Assembly: GCA_016202795.1 (NCBI GenBank)
Contig: JACQNY010000111.1
Span: forward strand, 1 to 18,792
Length of the DNA: 18,792 bases
Reading direction: 5' to 3'
Source: Candidatus Aenigmatarchaeota archaeon
GTDB taxonomy: Archaea; Aenigmatarchaeota; Aenigmatarchaeia; JACPZZ01
A program made the position numbers and the translations under genes. This document shows, in pieces, positions 4,749-17,444 of this stretch. The notes under the pieces were generated by a model. That model saw only the letters and a program-made list of their open reading frames with translations. It was not told the origin of the DNA and did no database searches. Every line of letters starts with the position of its first letter. The first letter of the stretch is position 1.

Positions 4749-5210
4749 TTACAAAAATTTTATATCTCTTGACTCTATGGTCGCGGTCGAAGCCGCATTG
4801 GAACCGCTGCAGTTATGCGGTATCCGAACTCTCGTTATCGCATTGCTGTCAACGCTTGTGTTGCTAACCGACACTGGCACGCCCGGCGCTAAACTAAGGT
4901 TGGCAGGCGCAATGATATACTCTGCGCTGCTGCCGTTGTTGAAAAGCACTATCATCTTGAAATCTCCTAATGGCACGTTACCTTGGTTAATGACCTCGGT
5001 TGAGAACCTCTTTACTGTGGAATTGTAGACTGGTGTTTCAAACGCTAACCATGCAGACGAACAGCCAACCTGTTTCGAACCTTTTTCATTAAGCGTTTGC
5101 GTTTGTGTGCGCGAATAATCGAGAACCCAGTTGCTCAATATAATTGCTACCGCCATTGTGAACGCGACCAGAAGAACCGTGGCTATCAATGGCGAAATGC
5201 CTTTTCTCAT
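4749..5210 (-). CDS. archaeal type IV pilin-like protein with class III signal peptide (pilin 1)
   Basis: I place the start at the internal ATG (aa 40 of the listed ORF), giving 'MRKG|ISPLIATVLLVAFTMAVAIILSNWV'. That is the K/R-G cleavage motif plus hydrophobic helix of the archaeal Pilin_N (DUF1628-like) type. Two Cys and five N-x-S/T sequons. Confidence 0.8.
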   Translation of the reverse strand: MRKGISPLIATVLLVAFTMAVAIILSNWVLDYSRTQTQTLNEKGSKQVGCSSAWLAFETPVYNSTVKRFSTEVINQGNVPLGDFKMIVLFNNGSSAEYIIAPANLSLAPGVPVSVSNTSVDSNAITRVRIPHNCSGSNAASTATIESRDIKFL

Positions 5211-5254
5211 ATTATTAATTGGTTTATCGGTCCAATAAATAGTTTGTTTTTTTT

Positions 5255-5752
5255 CTAAAGGCTTGTCACAGTCCCGACAACAGTATACCTGCTCTGGCAC
5301 AGGGCTGTGACGCGAACTTCGCGCCAAGTTACGCCGGAAGGGACAATCCCGCTCAATATATAATTGTTAAGTTTGACAGAAGAACCGACTGCTAAATTCC
5401 TGACCGTTGCGTCTATGTTTGGCACTGTATTATTCGTATAGGTAACGCCGTTTGCGTCTCTGACAGTAACGCCTGTAATGTTTAACGTCTCCGTACCGCT
5501 GGAATATGTTATTGTCACATTAAACCTGCTGCCGTCGTTAGTGCTGTTGCCCAGAACCGAAACGTCGTCCCTGTCAATGGAAAGCGTTGAATACGCGCAT
5601 AAAGTCTGCTGATCCCCGCGCTGCCCTATTGTTTCGGTCTGCTGCTGCGTAAAACCTGTTATCCACGTAACTATGACCGCTGCAACAGCCATGGTAAATC
5701 CTACCAGTAAAACAGAAGCGATCAACGGGTTGAGGCCTTTCGCATTTCTCAT
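5255..5752 (-). CDS. archaeal type IV pilin-like protein with class III signal peptide (pilin 2)
   Basis: 'MRNAKG|LNPLIASVLLVGFTMAVAAVIVTWITGF'. Two Cys and four sequons. Paralog of pilin 3. TAG stop. Confidence 0.85.
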   Translation of the reverse strand: MRNAKGLNPLIASVLLVGFTMAVAAVIVTWITGFTQQQTETIGQRGDQQTLCAYSTLSIDRDDVSVLGNSTNDGSRFNVTITYSSGTETLNITGVTVRDANGVTYTNNTVPNIDATVRNLAVGSSVKLNNYILSGIVPSGVTWREVRVTALCQSRYTVVGTVTSL

Positions 5753-5766
5753 TTTATATCATGAAC

Positions 5767-6243
5767 CTAGAACTTGACCGTGCCGGTAACAACGTACTGG
5801 CTCTGGCACAAACCAGTTACTTTAAACTCTGCAAGCGCGACCCCACCTGGTATAACAGCGTTATTTGTAAGGTTATAATTGATAAACTTGCGCGACTCGC
5901 CGACAGCCCAGTTCAATCCTGTCGCGCTCGACCCGAGCGGGGTAATATTCGTGTATGTGACGCCGTTTGCATCCCTTAATGTGAAGCCAGTGATATTCAA
6001 AGTTTCGGTCCCGCCGGAATATGTTACTGTAACATTGAAGTTTGTACCAGTCGCGCTGACATCGTCCCTGTCAACTGACAGAACAGAGTAACCGCACAAA
6101 ACCTGGCGCTCGCCGCGCGTGCCTATGTTGGATGTCTGCTGCTGCGTAAAACCTGTTATCCACGTAACTATTATCGCAGCTACTGCCATTGTAAACGCTA
6201 CTAAAAGAACAGACGCGATAAGCGGGGACAAGCCTTTTCTCAT
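5767..6243 (-). CDS. archaeal type IV pilin-like protein with class III signal peptide (pilin 3)
   Basis: 'MRKG|LSPLIASVLLVAFTMAVAAIIVTWITGF'. A GGAG Shine-Dalgarno ('aaaGGAGaaaaaaATG') lies upstream. Two Cys and four sequons. Confidence 0.85.
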   Translation of the reverse strand: MRKGLSPLIASVLLVAFTMAVAAIIVTWITGFTQQQTSNIGTRGERQVLCGYSVLSVDRDDVSATGTNFNVTVTYSGGTETLNITGFTLRDANGVTYTNITPLGSSATGLNWAVGESRKFINYNLTNNAVIPGGVALAEFKVTGLCQSQYVVTGTVKF

Positions 6244-6291
6244 TTTTTTCTCCTTTGATATTATTATGCCGGAATCCTATTTAAACATTGT

Positions 6292-6753
6292 TTAAACAGT
6301 TTTATCGACAAATGAATACTCGGGACAGTTCGAAACCACGCGGAATCTGGTTATATTCGAAACTCCGTTGACTATGAACGATCTTGGCTCGCCGGCCGGC
6401 AGCGTGGTGTTTTGTTTGCCTATAACGCTGTTATCCGTATCTAGGGAAATGCGGCCTATGCCGCTGCCGTTGTAAAGGAATAACGTGAAATTCTGCAGTC
6501 CGATCCTTCCGTCGTTGTTTATTATCAGTATAAGCTGGTTGGAATTCTTGTCGTATGTGTAAGTGTCAAGGCTCATTCTGGCGTAAACGCAATTGGCTTC
6601 ATTGCCTTTCGTAGTCAGCGTCGAGGTTTGCTGGGTCATGTATTGGGTAGCCCATGTAGCGAGGATGGCTGCGATTGCCATTGTAAATGATATCAACAGC
6701 ACAGAAGCGACAAGCGGTGAAACGCCTTTTCGGATATCCGCCTTATGAGCCAT
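6292..6753 (-). CDS. archaeal type IV pilin-like protein with class III signal peptide (pilin 4)
   Basis: 'MAHKADIRKG|VSPLVASVLLISFTMAIAAILATW'. Two Cys and four sequons. A TATA-like 'ATATTTAA' lies upstream on the minus strand. Confidence 0.85.
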   Translation of the reverse strand: MAHKADIRKGVSPLVASVLLISFTMAIAAILATWATQYMTQQTSTLTTKGNEANCVYARMSLDTYTYDKNSNQLILIINNDGRIGLQNFTLFLYNGSGIGRISLDTDNSVIGKQNTTLPAGEPRSFIVNGVSNITRFRVVSNCPEYSFVDKTV

Positions 6754-12121: not shown

Positions 12122-12418
12122 CTAGGCGACTTCTATCGCGACGTCATTTTCCATCAAGCCGATTTTCAAGTCGTCGATAATGTTTTCTATGTCCTCGGGT
12201 TTGATTGTTACTTCGGTTATTTTCTTTGTAAATTTTTTCGTTATCTTTTCAAAAAATCCCTGATTCTTTGCATCAGATTCGCTTTCAACTTCAATGGATT
12301 CTGGTTTTATTTCTCCGGTTTTATTCAGCTCTTTGGCCGCTTCCTCCGGTTTTTTAGAAACAGCCTTTGCTATGTTGCCTATCGATTCTTTGATCTTCTT
12401 TTTCAGAAATCCGAACAT
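12122..12418 (-). CDS. ftsY: SRP receptor FtsY, N-terminal fragment (charged A-like region plus first N-domain helix), ending at an in-frame TAG
   Basis: 98 aa. K/E-rich, ending 'IENIIDDLKIGLMENDVAIEVA*'. It is in the same reading frame as 11375..12121. Confidence 0.8.
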   Translation of the reverse strand: MFGFLKKKIKESIGNIAKAVSKKPEEAAKELNKTGEIKPESIEVESESDAKNQGFFEKITKKFTKKITEVTIKPEDIENIIDDLKIGLMENDVAIEVA

Positions 12419-16240: not shown

Positions 16241-16726
16241 ATGGATTTTTCGGCGTTTTCGGATCTGTTGATAAGCCAGTGGGGATATCTGGGAATATTA
16301 TTTGTCCAGTTAATTAGTTCTTCGACGATTTTGTTGCCGTTGCCCGGAATCGCGGTTGTGTTCCTGTACGGCGCGGTCCTCAACCCGTTAATCGTTGGTT
16401 TGTTCGCCGCTACAGGCAGCGCCTTAGGGGAGTTAACAGGTTACGCTGTCGGTTATGGTGGCCACAAGTTGATTATCAGTAAAAACAGGGAATTTTCGAA
16501 AAAAGTGCGCTCATTGTTCCACAGGTATAACCCGTTTTTCGTGATAATGTTTTTTTCTGTTATTCCGTTTCCTTTTGATGTTGTTGGCGTTTTATGCGGA
16601 CTTTCCAAATACGACATTAAGAAGTTCTTTATAGCGACGTTTATCGGCAACTGGATAAAGCTTTCCGCTGTCGCGTTGGCAGGTTTTCATGGCCTGCCGT
16701 GGGTGTTGAAAATATTCGGCGGATGA
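16241..16726 (+). CDS. DedA/VTT (SNARE-associated) family membrane protein
   Basis: 161 aa with four or so TM helices. 'LPLPGIAVVFLYG', 'GELTGYAVGYGG' and 'FFSVIPFPFDVVGVLCG' are typical of the VTT domain. Confidence 0.75.
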   Translation: MDFSAFSDLLISQWGYLGILFVQLISSSTILLPLPGIAVVFLYGAVLNPLIVGLFAATGSALGELTGYAVGYGGHKLIISKNREFSKKVRSLFHRYNPFFVIMFFSVIPFPFDVVGVLCGLSKYDIKKFFIATFIGNWIKLSAVALAGFHGLPWVLKIFGG

Positions 16727-16737
16727 ATGGGTAGTTA

Positions 16738-16811
16738 GAAACATATGCATCGGAAAATGAAGCATACCGATACAGCATACGGTATGCTTCTAGCTGTCAA
16801 GCATATGTTTC
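16738..16811. repeat. two-tier hairpin element H1 (11-bp outer helix, 10x10 internal loop, 11-bp inner helix, 10-nt loop)
   Basis: GAAACATATGC (16738..16748) pairs perfectly with GCATATGTTTC (16801..16811). GAAGCATACCG (16759..16769) pairs perfectly with CGGTATGCTTC (16780..16790). The blocks start at 16738, 16759, 16780 and 16801, exactly 21 nt apart. Confidence 0.8.
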
Positions 16812-16820
16812 AGTTTACGA

Positions 16821-16994
16821 TGCTCCCGCCGGGATTTGAACCCGGGTTTAGAGGTGTCTGCCAAGCGTTTTTCCCAAGGTTTTTCTTTTACCCTAAGGCT
16901 TTTCTTTCAATTTAATTTCTTTCCCTCAAGGCTTTCTTTTGAAAGAAAGGCTTGTCCGCAACCTCTTGTCTTATCCAGACTGGACCACGGGAGC
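16821..16994 (-). tRNA. tRNA-Arg (anticodon GCG) with a 100-nt intron at the canonical 37/38 position
   Basis: Folded by hand. Acceptor GCUCCCG/CGGGAGC (7 Watson-Crick pairs), D arm with GG, anticodon stem AGAGG/CCUCU, loop UU-GCG-GA, T arm CCGGG-UUCAAAU-CCCGG, discriminator A. No CCA is encoded. The mature length is 74 nt. Confidence 0.9.
16856..16955 (-). other. tRNA intron bounded by a canonical bulge-helix-bulge motif
   Basis: The 4-bp central helix is U32-C35 paired with 16858..16861. The 3-nt bulges are G36-G37-A and A-C-A. A 5-bp outer helix pairs CAAGC (16954..16950) with GCUUG (16866..16862). Cleavage after the second bulge nucleotide restores a 7-nt anticodon loop. Confidence 0.85.
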
Positions 16995-17021
16995 GCCCAC
17001 AACTAGACACATAGGTTGCTA

Positions 17022-17144
17022 GAAACAGACGCATAACAGCTAGAAGCATACCGTATACTGAATAGTTTGCTAAAGCAAACTATTTGAGAAAATCCGATGA
17101 TTTTCTCAATATCGGTATGCTTCAGTTTACGATGCGTCTGTTTC
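17022..17144. repeat. two-tier hairpin element H2, homolog of H1 with an enlarged apex
   Basis: GAAACAGACGC (17022..17032) pairs perfectly with GCGTCTGTTTC (17134..17144). GAAGCATACCG (17043..17053) pairs perfectly with CGGTATGCTTC (17113..17123). The apex holds two perfect hairpins: 17061..17084 (10 bp, loop TAAA) and 17086..17107 (8 bp, loop CCGATG). Confidence 0.8.
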
Positions 17145-17172
17145 AATTTACCGATGTGTCAGTCTGGCTTGG

Positions 17173-17204
17173 TTAAACTTTCTTTAAAAAGAAAGTTTAA
17201 ATAT
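17173..17204. promoter_or_regulatory. 28-nt perfect palindrome overlapping the BRE/TATA promoter of the Zn-ribbon/ef1b genes; possible back-to-back divergent promoter
   Basis: TTAAACTTTCTTT-AA-AAAGAAAGTTTAA spans 17173..17200. On the plus strand, 'AGAAAG TTTAAATA' (BRE plus TATA) ends about 28 nt before the ATG at 17232. The mirror arm gives 'AGAAAG TTTAACCA' on the minus strand, facing the tRNA. Confidence 0.55.
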
Positions 17205-17231
17205 ATCACAGCGGATAAGTAATACGATATC

Positions 17232-17426
17232 ATGGAGCAACAGATTGAAATTAACAAAACCGACAAAAAATTATGCACAACGTGCGGGTCTGTTGTGGCT
17301 TACATCGGAACTTTCGTCGAGTTTCTGTGTCCAAACTGCAATTCAGATCTTATCAGGCGCTGCGAAAGGTGCAAAAATTTCAGCAACAAATACAAATGTT
17401 CAAAGTGTTCCTTTACAGGACCATAA
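17232..17426 (+). CDS. Zn-ribbon protein (COG2888-like, translation-associated, typically next to aEF-1beta)
   Basis: 64 aa with 'CTTCG', 'CPNC', 'CERC' and 'CSKC' pairs. It lies immediately upstream of ef1b, as in many archaea. Confidence 0.7.
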   Translation: MEQQIEINKTDKKLCTTCGSVVAYIGTFVEFLCPNCNSDLIRRCERCKNFSNKYKCSKCSFTGP

Positions 17427-17444
17427 ACAGCTAGAAGTGATTAA

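Follow-up and report, generated by a model that had tools for sequence, protein, structure and literature searches.

The window, that is, the whole 18.8-kb stretch of DNA analysed in this work, contains a tRNA-Arg(GCG) gene bracketed by two nested hairpin elements, H1 and H2. Since the gene lies on the minus strand, H2 is located upstream and H1 downstream of it. H1 starts 11 nt past the stop codon of the plus-strand VTT-domain gene and 9-10 nt past the tRNA 3' end. The features of the locus are the following:

16738..16811, no strand assigned: H1, a two-tier member of the repeat family, with outer stem GAAACATATGC, inner stem GAAGCATACCG and a 10-nt loop
16821..16994, minus strand: tRNA-Arg(GCG) gene, identified by ARAGORN with introns allowed
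17006..17160, no strand assigned: complete three-tier upstream element, whose tier 3 encloses the H2 core
17022..17144, no strand assigned: H2 core, the long two-tier form, with outer stem GAAACAGACGC, inner stem GAAGCATACCG and a 59-nt apex
17054..17112, no strand assigned: H2 apex, with two small perfect hairpins (17061-17084 and 17084-17109)
17173..17200, no strand assigned: candidate promoter palindrome TTAAACTTTCTTTAAAAAGAAAGTTTAA, conserved in four of five aligned orthologues and partial in L046
17427..17444, plus strand: family hairpin remnant (ACAGCTAGAAG...), located in the spacer that separates the zinc-finger and EF-1beta genes

The tRNA-Arg gene comprises exon 1 (16994-16956), a 100-nt intron at the canonical position (16955-16856) and exon 2 (16855-16821). 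Its orthologues carry introns of 0, 74, 82, 98, 147 and 153 nt, the one lacking an intron being present in L053. Default ARAGORN and Rfam both missed this gene in the window. Standard tools overlook tRNA genes of this kind because of their long, hairpin-rich leaders and their long introns, so that such MAGs probably contain more tRNA genes than are counted. The neighbours of tRNA-Arg are housekeeping genes that are syntenic in eight relatives, and for this reason we rejected the idea of an element integrated at the tRNA; the sole direct repeat found in a search for an att site was a 15-mer sharing 3 nt with the tRNA, which does not qualify as one.

A previous sequence-only reading had described H1 and H2 as homologous two-tier hairpins, and every sequence detail it gave was correct on recomputation. 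We recovered the same block sequences and starts (16738, 16759, 16780 and 16801 in H1; 17022, 17043, 17113 and 17134 in H2), the four perfect 11-bp helices, and the 59-nt apex of H2 with its two perfect hairpins at 17061-17084 and 17084-17109. The two outer-stem differences between H1 and H2 (TAT versus GAC) are both compensated, and their internal-loop strands, which occupy swapped, reverse-complemented positions, are identical at 8/10 and 8/10 nucleotides. The 21-nt and 15-nt long-range inverted repeats enclosing the tRNA were also reproduced, as was the 15-mer direct repeat with its 3-nt overlap of the tRNA 3' end. The window contains four occurrences of the inner block, where 0.28 would be expected by chance; none of 200 shuffles reached four, and the H1/H2 blocks are absent from the rest of the 18.8 kb. 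Folding of H1 and H2 gave z = -7 to -12 relative to shuffled sequence, both strands being equally stable. What the earlier description missed was a third outer tier of H2, formed by GACACATAGG at 17006-17015 pairing with CCGATGTGTC at 17151-17160 (9/10), which ends 11 nt from the tRNA 5' end; this three-tier layout recurs in L033, L036, L014 and L022.

Comparison with other loci revealed that these elements are built from a common unit, a hairpin of ~32 nt composed of GAARCA-N5, a 9-12 nt A/T-rich loop and N5'-TGYTTC, with conserved (T)AGYT flanks. Units nest inside one another in one to five tiers, and the recurrent composites are a 74-nt two-tier form, represented by H1, and a long form with a two-hairpin apex, represented by H2 and found also at non-tRNA sites in L009 and L024. 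A search using the two 6-nt anchors alone yielded 31 matches in 185 kb against 0.38 in shuffled sequence. These 31 strict copies were all intergenic or intronic, in a 185-kb sample that is biased, as 12 loci were fetched with the element itself as query. Complementarity is maintained: the five distal pairs are Watson-Crick in 149/155 cases and involve 10 different distal 5-mers, and pairing holds for 97.3% of the cells in 12 two-tier copies. The hairpins of the H2 apex constitute a second hairpin family, in which the base (AATAG.../TTGAGAAAA...) is conserved and the distal stem varies with compensation; copies with compensated changes occur in L009 and L024, and the tRNA-Arg leader of L052 is an array of six such hairpins.

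The exact two-tier pattern was found in at least four Aenigmatarchaeota MAGs, on 12 DNA stretches, and in five metagenome contigs, and outside of these only as scattered single matches in unrelated contigs. Copies are located downstream of stop codons, within 5' UTRs, in spacers between cistrons, next to tRNAs and in the intron of a tRNA-Trp gene. In agreement with the earlier view that the hairpins belong to no known RNA family, Rfam had no match in the window and recognized only tRNA in 17 related loci, and we found no known MITE or IS end matching H1 or H2. When the elements are considered as MITEs, dispersed copies do exist, as that possibility demands, while the stems are compensated and no characterised family matches. 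Neither were target-site duplications detected at the copies, where the adjoining sequence consists of the conserved family flanks. Our literature search retrieved no description of these nested repeats. They are a previously undescribed family of nested palindromic repeats in a group of Aenigmatarchaeota (DPANN archaea).

The existence of this family changes the meaning of the H1/H2 pair. Their homology and the compensation of their stems hold, but the notion of a dedicated pair co-evolving around the tRNA does not, because each is nearer to copies elsewhere: H1 and the reverse complement of H2 share 56/64 positions, against 59/64 between H1 and a copy in another metagenome and 61/64 between H2 and a copy in another MAG. 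The covariation that had appeared specific to the pair is instead a polymorphism of the whole family; among the 12 two-tier copies, position 7 of the outer stem is UA in six and GC in four, and position 9 is CG in five and UA in five. The orientation of the central loop relative to the internal loops is also divided, six copies one way and six the other, and L009 has the two apex hairpins in the opposite order to the window. Judging from these sequence comparisons, H1 and H2 belong independently to a dispersed family and are not a device for this tRNA.

The copies elsewhere also bear on the proposal that the elements act as DNA, with GAARCA blocks phased by two helical turns and serving as sites for a protein dimer or tetramer, for instance the winged-helix regulator encoded nearby. 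This proposal drew on the exact 21-nt register and the direct-direct-inverted-inverted layout of H1 and H2, and it would be in keeping with the conservation of the 6-nt block core and flanks and with the symmetry of the elements on both strands. The register, true of H1 and H2, is confined to the two-tier subfamily, and other copies space their blocks by 17-21 nt, so that the phasing argument fails across the family. Moreover, half of each block varies freely yet complements its partner, which points to pairing and not to sequence read-out. Copies lie at many unrelated loci and even inside a tRNA intron, and in the orthologues that reach past the EF-1beta gene the position of the winged-helix gene is taken by other genes. 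We therefore consider a protein-binding array very unlikely.

At orthologous sites the hairpins are labile. At the H1 site, where the window has two tiers, L041 has one tier with the same outer stem, L051 has two tiers in the opposite orientation and with different stems, L044 has a different single hairpin, and L052 and L053 have none. At the H2 site the three tiers and apex of the window correspond to an unrelated single hairpin in L041, to the six apex-type hairpins in L052 and to no hairpin in L043, L044 and L053. The spacer between the zinc-finger and EF-1beta genes holds no tier in L043, one in L041 and L053, two in L046 and L052, and four in L044. The tRNA-Arg of close relatives thus carries no, fewer or different hairpins, and for this reason these elements are not required pre-tRNA modules, as had been suggested. 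On the other hand, the zinc-finger/EF-1beta spacer is occupied in 5/7 genomes and the junction of the VTT-domain gene and the tRNA in 4/5 genomes where both are still adjacent, the occupied sites spanning 60-86% identity of the adjacent VTT-domain protein. Such long-term occupancy is as compatible with a selected function as with persistence.

The absence of a TATA box adjoining the tRNA, pointed out in the sequence-only reading, was borne out, and beyond H2 we identified the conserved palindrome at 17173..17200, to which we attribute a putative promoter role. From its sequence, the centre of the palindrome (TTTTTAAA) is likely the TATA box for the minus-strand tRNA, and the adjoining TTTAAATATAT likely that for the plus-strand zinc-finger gene. 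In L044, the simplest relative, 10 nt separate the tRNA 5' end from the palindrome, which is centred at about -26, whereas in the window it is displaced by ~165 nt, occupied by H2 and its third tier. This difference suggests that the element at 17006..17160 is probably the 5' leader of the pre-tRNA, and the position of the palindrome beyond H2 makes a single transcript comprising H2, tRNA and H1 plausible, as had been proposed. H2 would have been acquired between the tRNA-Arg promoter and the gene, and transcription would consequently be expected to start at ~17160, and RNase P would then cut off a hairpin leader of ~166 nt. H1 sits in the short spacer that the trailer of the tRNA shares with the 3' end of the convergent VTT-domain gene.

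A different relation to transcription would be that the hairpin itself is a portable tRNA promoter, since in single-tier copies ending 10 nt from a tRNA the A/T-rich loops (ATACAGTATA, GTACGAATG and similar) are centred at about -26 and span -31 to -22, the position of a TATA box. This idea is scarcely credible. Multi-tier copies, including H2, have their loop or apex ~60-120 nt away from the tRNA, antisense transcription would result from the mirror-image copies downstream of tRNAs, and the loops lack the TTTAWA-type box that hairpin-free tRNAs and protein-coding genes of the same genomes possess. In addition, the conserved promoter palindrome is kept upstream of the hairpins.

The distance of the hairpins from the tRNAs is itself peculiar. 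In 10/20 tRNAs, or in 13/20 when multi-tier forms are included, the 5' end is preceded at 6-15 nt by the end of a hairpin, against 7.6% of random positions. Hairpin ends about 10 nt before tRNAs are not predicted by random insertion, and with such a spacing an RNA function is possible.

Accordingly, the hairpins could be functional RNA signals of punctuation or stability, marking or shielding the limits of tRNAs and cistrons by blocking exonucleases, guiding endonucleases, or acting as terminators or insulators of transcription; in that case H2 and H1 would possibly be leader and trailer modules of pre-tRNA-Arg. Besides the 10-13 of 20 tRNAs with hairpins so spaced (7.6% for random positions), many of them ending 9-11 nt before the tRNA 5' end, some hairpins start 9-10 nt after tRNA 3' ends and others lie 6-16 nt past stop codons. 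All these contexts are probably transcribed, and a canonical TATA-like box is found upstream of hairpin arrays, with none between hairpin and tRNA. Complementarity is strictly kept through many compensated variants, and some orthologous sites have long been occupied by hairpins with different compensated stems. However, both tRNA-Arg and the zinc-finger/EF-1beta operon occur without hairpins (L043, L044 and L053), the orientation relative to the transcript is variable and the loops flip. The few mismatches, counted by eye, show no clear sense-strand bias to G.U (~4-5 G.U against 2 A.C), perfect palindromes with self-complementary centres would be unusual as RNA hairpin loops, and neither a bulge-helix-bulge nor a kink-turn geometry could be drawn by hand. 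Taken together, we regard an RNA signal as possible, although doubtful.

The family is dispersed and nested, its complementarity is maintained while tiers differ between orthologous sites, and at tRNA-Arg the promoter is displaced. We favour, with moderate confidence, the explanation that it is a lineage-specific family of REP/REPIN- or MITE-like repeats persisting in spacers that are transcribed and discarded. As with the REP/REPIN or Correia-type elements of bacteria, spread or copying would take place in DNA, tiers would be gained, lost or inverted at a given site, and copies would survive in transcribed but discarded DNA, namely tRNA leaders, trailers and introns, UTRs and inter-cistron spacers, the transcribed hairpins being removed through normal end-processing. 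We infer this mobility, as target-site duplications are absent and the loci compared include no clean case of a filled and an empty site with identical flanks; ~200 kb of locus DNA yielded no mobilising enzyme. Either selection for the hairpin or arm-to-arm copying (template switching or flip-flop) may keep the arms perfect.

A bolder proposal, which we judge unlikely, is that the GAARCA hairpins are a selected RNA "punctuation" system or the first archaeal counterpart of REPIN-RAYT. In the former case, a perhaps domesticated selfish repeat of a very compact genome may bracket most tRNA genes and many cistron boundaries at ~10 nt, its hairpins directing or protecting end-maturation; in the latter, a yet-to-be-found enzyme may place hairpin copies within the loops of existing hairpins and beside the ends of tRNAs.

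REPs, REPINs and similar short palindromic repeats are viewed as a trait of bacteria, and their persistence, their function and their link to a domesticated transposase are still debated. The archaeal family described here combines three unusual properties: concentric multi-tier hairpins, fast turnover at orthologous sites with the arms kept perfect, and accumulation at a set distance from the ends of tRNAs and within tRNA introns. It therefore offers a new system for asking how such repeats spread and whether they serve RNA maturation in the ultra-small genomes of DPANN archaea.

With respect to known systems, a CRISPR array was rejected, as the blocks are inverted and nested, number two to five per arm, and are separated by conserved "spacers". 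Kink-turn and integron attC-like readings were rejected on geometry or sequence. A viral origin was likewise set aside, as the inner-hairpin scan of viral contigs returned only an unrelated palindrome in a gene of phage-like contigs of 61% G+C. The elements resemble the processing stems of archaeal rRNAs and tRNAs in that leader and trailer can pair around the tRNA, a pairing used in the predicted minimum-free-energy fold of the 449-nt putative precursor. Nevertheless, we rejected a leader-trailer stem since this pairing is trivial for any two oppositely oriented family members, local hairpins are better paired than the long-range helix, and orthologous pre-tRNAs lack the elements. A likeness to mobile tRNA introns is that tRNA introns, both at canonical and at non-canonical positions, also harbour these hairpins; by hand, no bulge-helix-bulge motif (3-nt bulge, 4-bp helix, 3-nt bulge) was found at the hairpin bases, in the 10 x 10 internal loops or in the predicted folds.

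The archaeal PATEs, derived from IS200/IS605 elements, are similar in being non-autonomous, with subterminal hairpins and without inverted terminal repeats or target duplications, and the MAGs in question also carry IS200/IS605 TnpA and TnpB genes. In contrast to the asymmetric left and right ends of PATEs, the elements of the window are symmetric palindromes, and the IS end hairpins examined (e.g. CCCCGCAC...GTGCGGGG) are unrelated to the GAARCA family. IS200/IS605 was thus rejected as the source, although a TnpA gene lies at the orthologous locus L046 and TnpB genes in L044 and L004. The Correia, NEMIS-type and other bacterial MITEs are also hairpin-forming repeats, of 70-160 nt; they exist in long and short forms differing by a central segment of ~50 nt, as do H2 and H1, are co-transcribed with neighbouring genes and can separate a gene from its promoter. 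DPANN genomes are rich in MITEs (PMC11602168). The present family differs from these elements in its modular nested architecture and, whereas a MITE has terminal inverted repeats and a target-site duplication, here the arms are inverted and the flanks are conserved family sequence. No parent IS with matching ends was found in ~200 kb, the ends of the TnpA and TnpB elements being different.

REP, BIME and REPIN sequences are bacterial repetitive extragenic palindromes, mobilised by RAYT Y1 transposases. Like these short imperfect palindromes of ~30-40 nt, our units measure 32 nt, are extragenic or intronic, and exceed expectation (31 strict copies in 185 kb against 0.38, in a biased sample). 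REPs have many copies per genome; here copies were counted in that biased sample of loci. Further likenesses are the strictly extragenic location in transcribed spacers, after stop codons and between cistrons, the clusters of variable number and both orientations at orthologous sites, and the compensated stem variation without classical terminal inverted repeats or target duplication. The differences begin with the host, which is archaeal: among the Y1 proteins of 172 archaeal genomes only the IS200 type occurs, and none of the REP-associated classes (PMC6006769). The single Y1 gene from the loci is of the ordinary IS200 type, with hairpins unrelated to the GAARCA family, and a tblastn search with its protein gave no second copy in the locus DNA, where no RAYT-like gene was found either. 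The GTAG or CGTC tag of REPs (cf. PMC3733652) is lacking, GTAG occurring by chance in a few flanks. Finally, these archaeal hairpins are nested concentrically, in up to five tiers, where the units of REPs stand side by side, and are strongly associated with the flanks and introns of tRNA genes.

The best-supported reading of H1 and H2, the two-tier hairpin elements on either side of the tRNA-Arg gene, is that they are two independent copies of a lineage-specific nested palindromic repeat family. Their description comes from direct reading of 16500-17400, a repeat finder and recomputation of every reported number.

Elements and tRNA gene in the window
16738-16811: H1, GAAACATATGC-ATCGGAAAAT-GAAGCATACCG-ATACAGCATA-CGGTATGCTTC-TAGCTGTCAA-GCATATGTTTC
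17022-17144: H2, same plan as H1, outer stem GAAACAGACGC/GCGTCTGTTTC, 59-nt apex
16821-16994, minus strand: tRNA-Arg(GCG) with a 100-nt intron at 37/38 (ARAGORN, introns allowed)

Since the tRNA, missed at this site by default ARAGORN and by Rfam, is on the minus strand, H2 lies upstream and H1 downstream of it. Two perfect hairpins fill the H2 apex, and a third tier (one more stem of the concentric nest) encloses H2, 17006-17015 pairing with 17151-17160 at 9/10 positions. As an observation the sequence-only reading was confirmed, all recomputed numbers being in agreement: we reproduced exactly the starts of the blocks (the 11-nt stem arms), the internal loops (8/10 identical, in swapped, reverse-complement positions), the long-range inverted repeats of 21 nt and 15 nt, and the 15-mer direct repeat that overlaps the tRNA by 3 nt. 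Four copies of the inner block are present in the window versus 0.28 expected, and no further occurrence of the H1/H2 blocks was found elsewhere in it.

The two-tier element is dispersed. A scan of 185,579 species, each represented by one genome, with the query GAAACANANGC-N8-12-GAAGCATACCG retrieved 12 DNA stretches from four MAGs of Aenigmatarchaeota, both arms being present in several, and 11 single matches in unrelated bacteria, about the chance expectation; a metagenome scan added five genuine contigs with the two-tier pattern. In the loci collected from relatives (numbered with L), copies were found directly 3' of stop codons (L002, L010, L022), separating promoter from start codon (L024, L040), just 5' of tRNAs (L003, L006, L014, L026, L027), on the 3' side of a tRNA (L006) and within a tRNA-Trp intron (L016). 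The long form with an H2-type two-hairpin apex also occupies non-tRNA sites (L009, L024), where the changes in the apex stems with respect to H2 are compensated.

The compensated differences between the outer stems of H1 and H2, taken earlier as covariation of a pair around the tRNA, are real but a property of the family rather than of this pair, because both differing positions are polymorphic family-wide. When 12 two-tier copies are aligned, 97.3% of cells pair; outer-stem position 7 is UA in six and GC in four, and position 9 is CG in five and UA in five. H1 is identical to the reverse complement of H2 at 56/64 arm and internal-loop positions and to a metagenome copy at 59/64, and H2 matches a copy in another MAG at 61/64. 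A census of perfect hairpins revealed many simpler relatives. An unbiased test using only two conserved 6-nt anchors (GAARCA ... TGYTTC, 17-22 nt apart) matched 31 times across 185 kb of DNA from Aenigmatarchaeota, shuffled sequence giving 0.38; of the pairs outside the search constraint, five per hairpin, 149/155 were Watson-Crick and 3 were G.U, and the distal 5-mers were of ten different kinds. Conserved (T)AGYT on both flanks of the unit hairpin makes the unit wider than its 11-bp stem.

Copies contain one to five concentric tiers (L040, L044) with inter-tier spacers of 6-10 nt; therefore the exact 21-nt register, although true of H1 and H2, is not general. Measured against the asymmetric internal loops, the central loop points one way in 6 copies and the other way in 6; window H2 and L009 have their two apex hairpins in inverted order; and the elements fold equally well on both strands. 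All this is characteristic of palindromic DNA that rearranges about its centre and not of RNA read in one sense.

The window encodes archaeal housekeeping functions (SRP54, FtsY, prefoldin, Pus10, CDP-archaeol synthase, PTH2), an HVO_2753-like zinc-finger protein, EF-1beta and a type IV pilus/archaellum cluster. The VTT-domain membrane protein encoded next to H1 has closest homologues 60-86% identical, and those with a named source all come from 'Candidatus Aenigmarchaeota/Aenigmatarchaeota' MAGs. Two further features were observed. An otherwise intact ftsY carries an in-frame TAG (12122-12124, minus strand; …DVAIEVA*KICGD versus …DVALDVAEKICGD, with Glu, in an 86%-related orthologue), for which sequencing error, a recent pseudogene and read-through are candidate explanations. 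Four paralogous genes in tandem, each of ~155-190 codons (4749-6753, minus strand) and weakly matching the archaeal flagellin / type IV pilin N-terminus, adjoin genes for a PilB-like ATPase, a KaiC-like ATPase and two T2SSF-domain membrane proteins. Eight syntenic loci of relatives were compared with the window.

H1 site, from VTT-domain gene to tRNA 3' end (in brackets, identity of the VTT-domain protein)
Window: two tiers
L041/L042 (86%): outer tier only, identical stem GAAACATATGC, 9-nt loop
L051 (83%): two tiers, opposite orientation, stems different and compensated
L044 (72%): single hairpin of different sequence, GAATCAGG/CCTGATTC
L052 (64%): no hairpin
L043, L046, L053: occupied by inserted other genes

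H2 site, from tRNA 5' end to promoter
Window: three tiers and apex
L041: single unrelated hairpin
L043, L044, L053: without family hairpin
L046: small GCATACC hairpin
L052, 4650-4830: tandem array of six small apex-type hairpins (ATAGAAAAYC-loop-GRTTTTCTAT), the tRNA-Arg leader

Spacer from zinc-finger gene to EF-1beta gene
L043: 0 tiers
Window, 17427-17444: remnant ACAGCTAGAAG
L041, L053: 1 tier
L046, L052: 2 tiers
L044: 4 tiers

Hairpin turnover in this spacer is rapid, as at the tRNA-Arg locus. Hairpins similar to the L052 leader type lie on the 3' side of the EF-1beta gene in L053. The VTT-domain gene/tRNA-Arg junction seems to be an insertion hot spot; it holds an Fe-ADH gene in L043 and, in L046 (10493-12270), an IS200/IS605 Y1 transposase gene with other foreign DNA.

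The sequence-only interpretation is supported in part: hairpins and compensation were rightly recognized. Evidence against a dedicated pre-tRNA module, and equally against an operator array, is that the elements are dispensable at orthologous loci, dispersed and nested, that they flip-flop, and that they have no fixed orientation.

Beyond H2 stands a putative promoter palindrome, TTAAACTTTCTTTAAAAAGAAAGTTTAA, conserved in four of five orthologues and partial in L046 (promoter-region alignment). The L044 copy is 10 nt away from the tRNA and its TTTTTAAA centre falls at about -26, where archaeal TATA boxes normally are, compared with ~165 nt between palindrome and tRNA in the window. As no A/T-rich box separates H2 from the tRNA in the window, the most likely transcription start of tRNA-Arg is near 17160, ~26 nt away from the centre of the palindrome and at the base where tier 3 begins, and H2 would then be a pre-tRNA leader. 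The palindrome core CTTTCTTTnnAAAGAAAG occurs twice in the window (tRNA intron, 16932-16949; promoter palindrome, 17178-17195), with both copies also present in several orthologues, and may define a third family of hairpins or else have arisen as convergent A/T-rich palindromes. The intron itself (16856-16955, minus strand) consists of three or four AAAGAAAAGCCTTAGGG-like units, imperfect and in tandem, and a palindrome CAAGCCTTTCTTT..AAAGAAAGGCTTG; its length among orthologues is 0, 74, 82, 98, 147 or 153 nt, unit number being the main source of change.

Among 20 tRNA genes in the collected loci, 10 have a simple hairpin ending 6-15 nt 5' of the tRNA, compared with 7.6% of random positions (estimated binomial probability ~5 in 10 million), and three more, the window tRNA-Arg included, are preceded by a multi-tier element, its outermost stem ending 10-11 nt 5' of the tRNA. 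A mirror-image hairpin lies 9-11 nt past the 3' end of five to seven. The conserved flanks belong to the unit, so that an abutting unit sets its stem ~10 nt off; this explains part of the 10-nt spacing, but not the preference for tRNA boundaries. In hairpin-free tRNAs a TATA-like box is found at about -30 to -23, whereas in hairpin-bearing ones it stands 25-45 nt 5' of the hairpin array, a placement which indicates that the hairpins are transcribed. Several tRNA introns, non-canonical ones included, have GACRCATAC... hairpins related to the family as their core. Several tRNA genes in these MAGs have two introns, some non-canonical (D-loop, T-loop; L016 51-175, L003 6439-6671), with a GACRCATAC-type core and CTA...AGT flanks as in the intergenic repeats. 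In L026 (2030-2163), an ORF begins directly 3' of a tRNA-Phe with upstream hairpins; we take its N-terminus (…GNVARWRDNVGRGSRVTAEVYLRRL) to resemble an archaeal integrase and, if so, that tRNA may host a separate integrated element.

The association with tRNAs, the strictly maintained pairing and the long occupancy of some sites suggest that the family may act at the RNA level, to protect ends, in processing or in termination, although the arms could also be kept perfect without selection, by arm-to-arm copying (template switching). On the best-supported reading, that of a repeat family, copies persist where DNA is transcribed and then thrown away.

No mobilising enzyme was identified in the related loci examined. 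IS200/IS605 genes are present in these MAGs, but the ends of the elements examined are unrelated to the family, and they were rejected as its source; according to a published survey, Y1 proteins in Archaea are of IS200 type only (PMC6006769). A scan of viral contigs found no virus link, and a literature search found no description of these repeats. High MITE loads have been reported for some DPANN genomes (PMC11602168). As short dispersed palindromic repeats, the family resembles REP/REPIN or Correia elements; unlike the usual repeats of this kind, it has an archaeal host, a concentric architecture and an affinity for tRNA flanks and introns.
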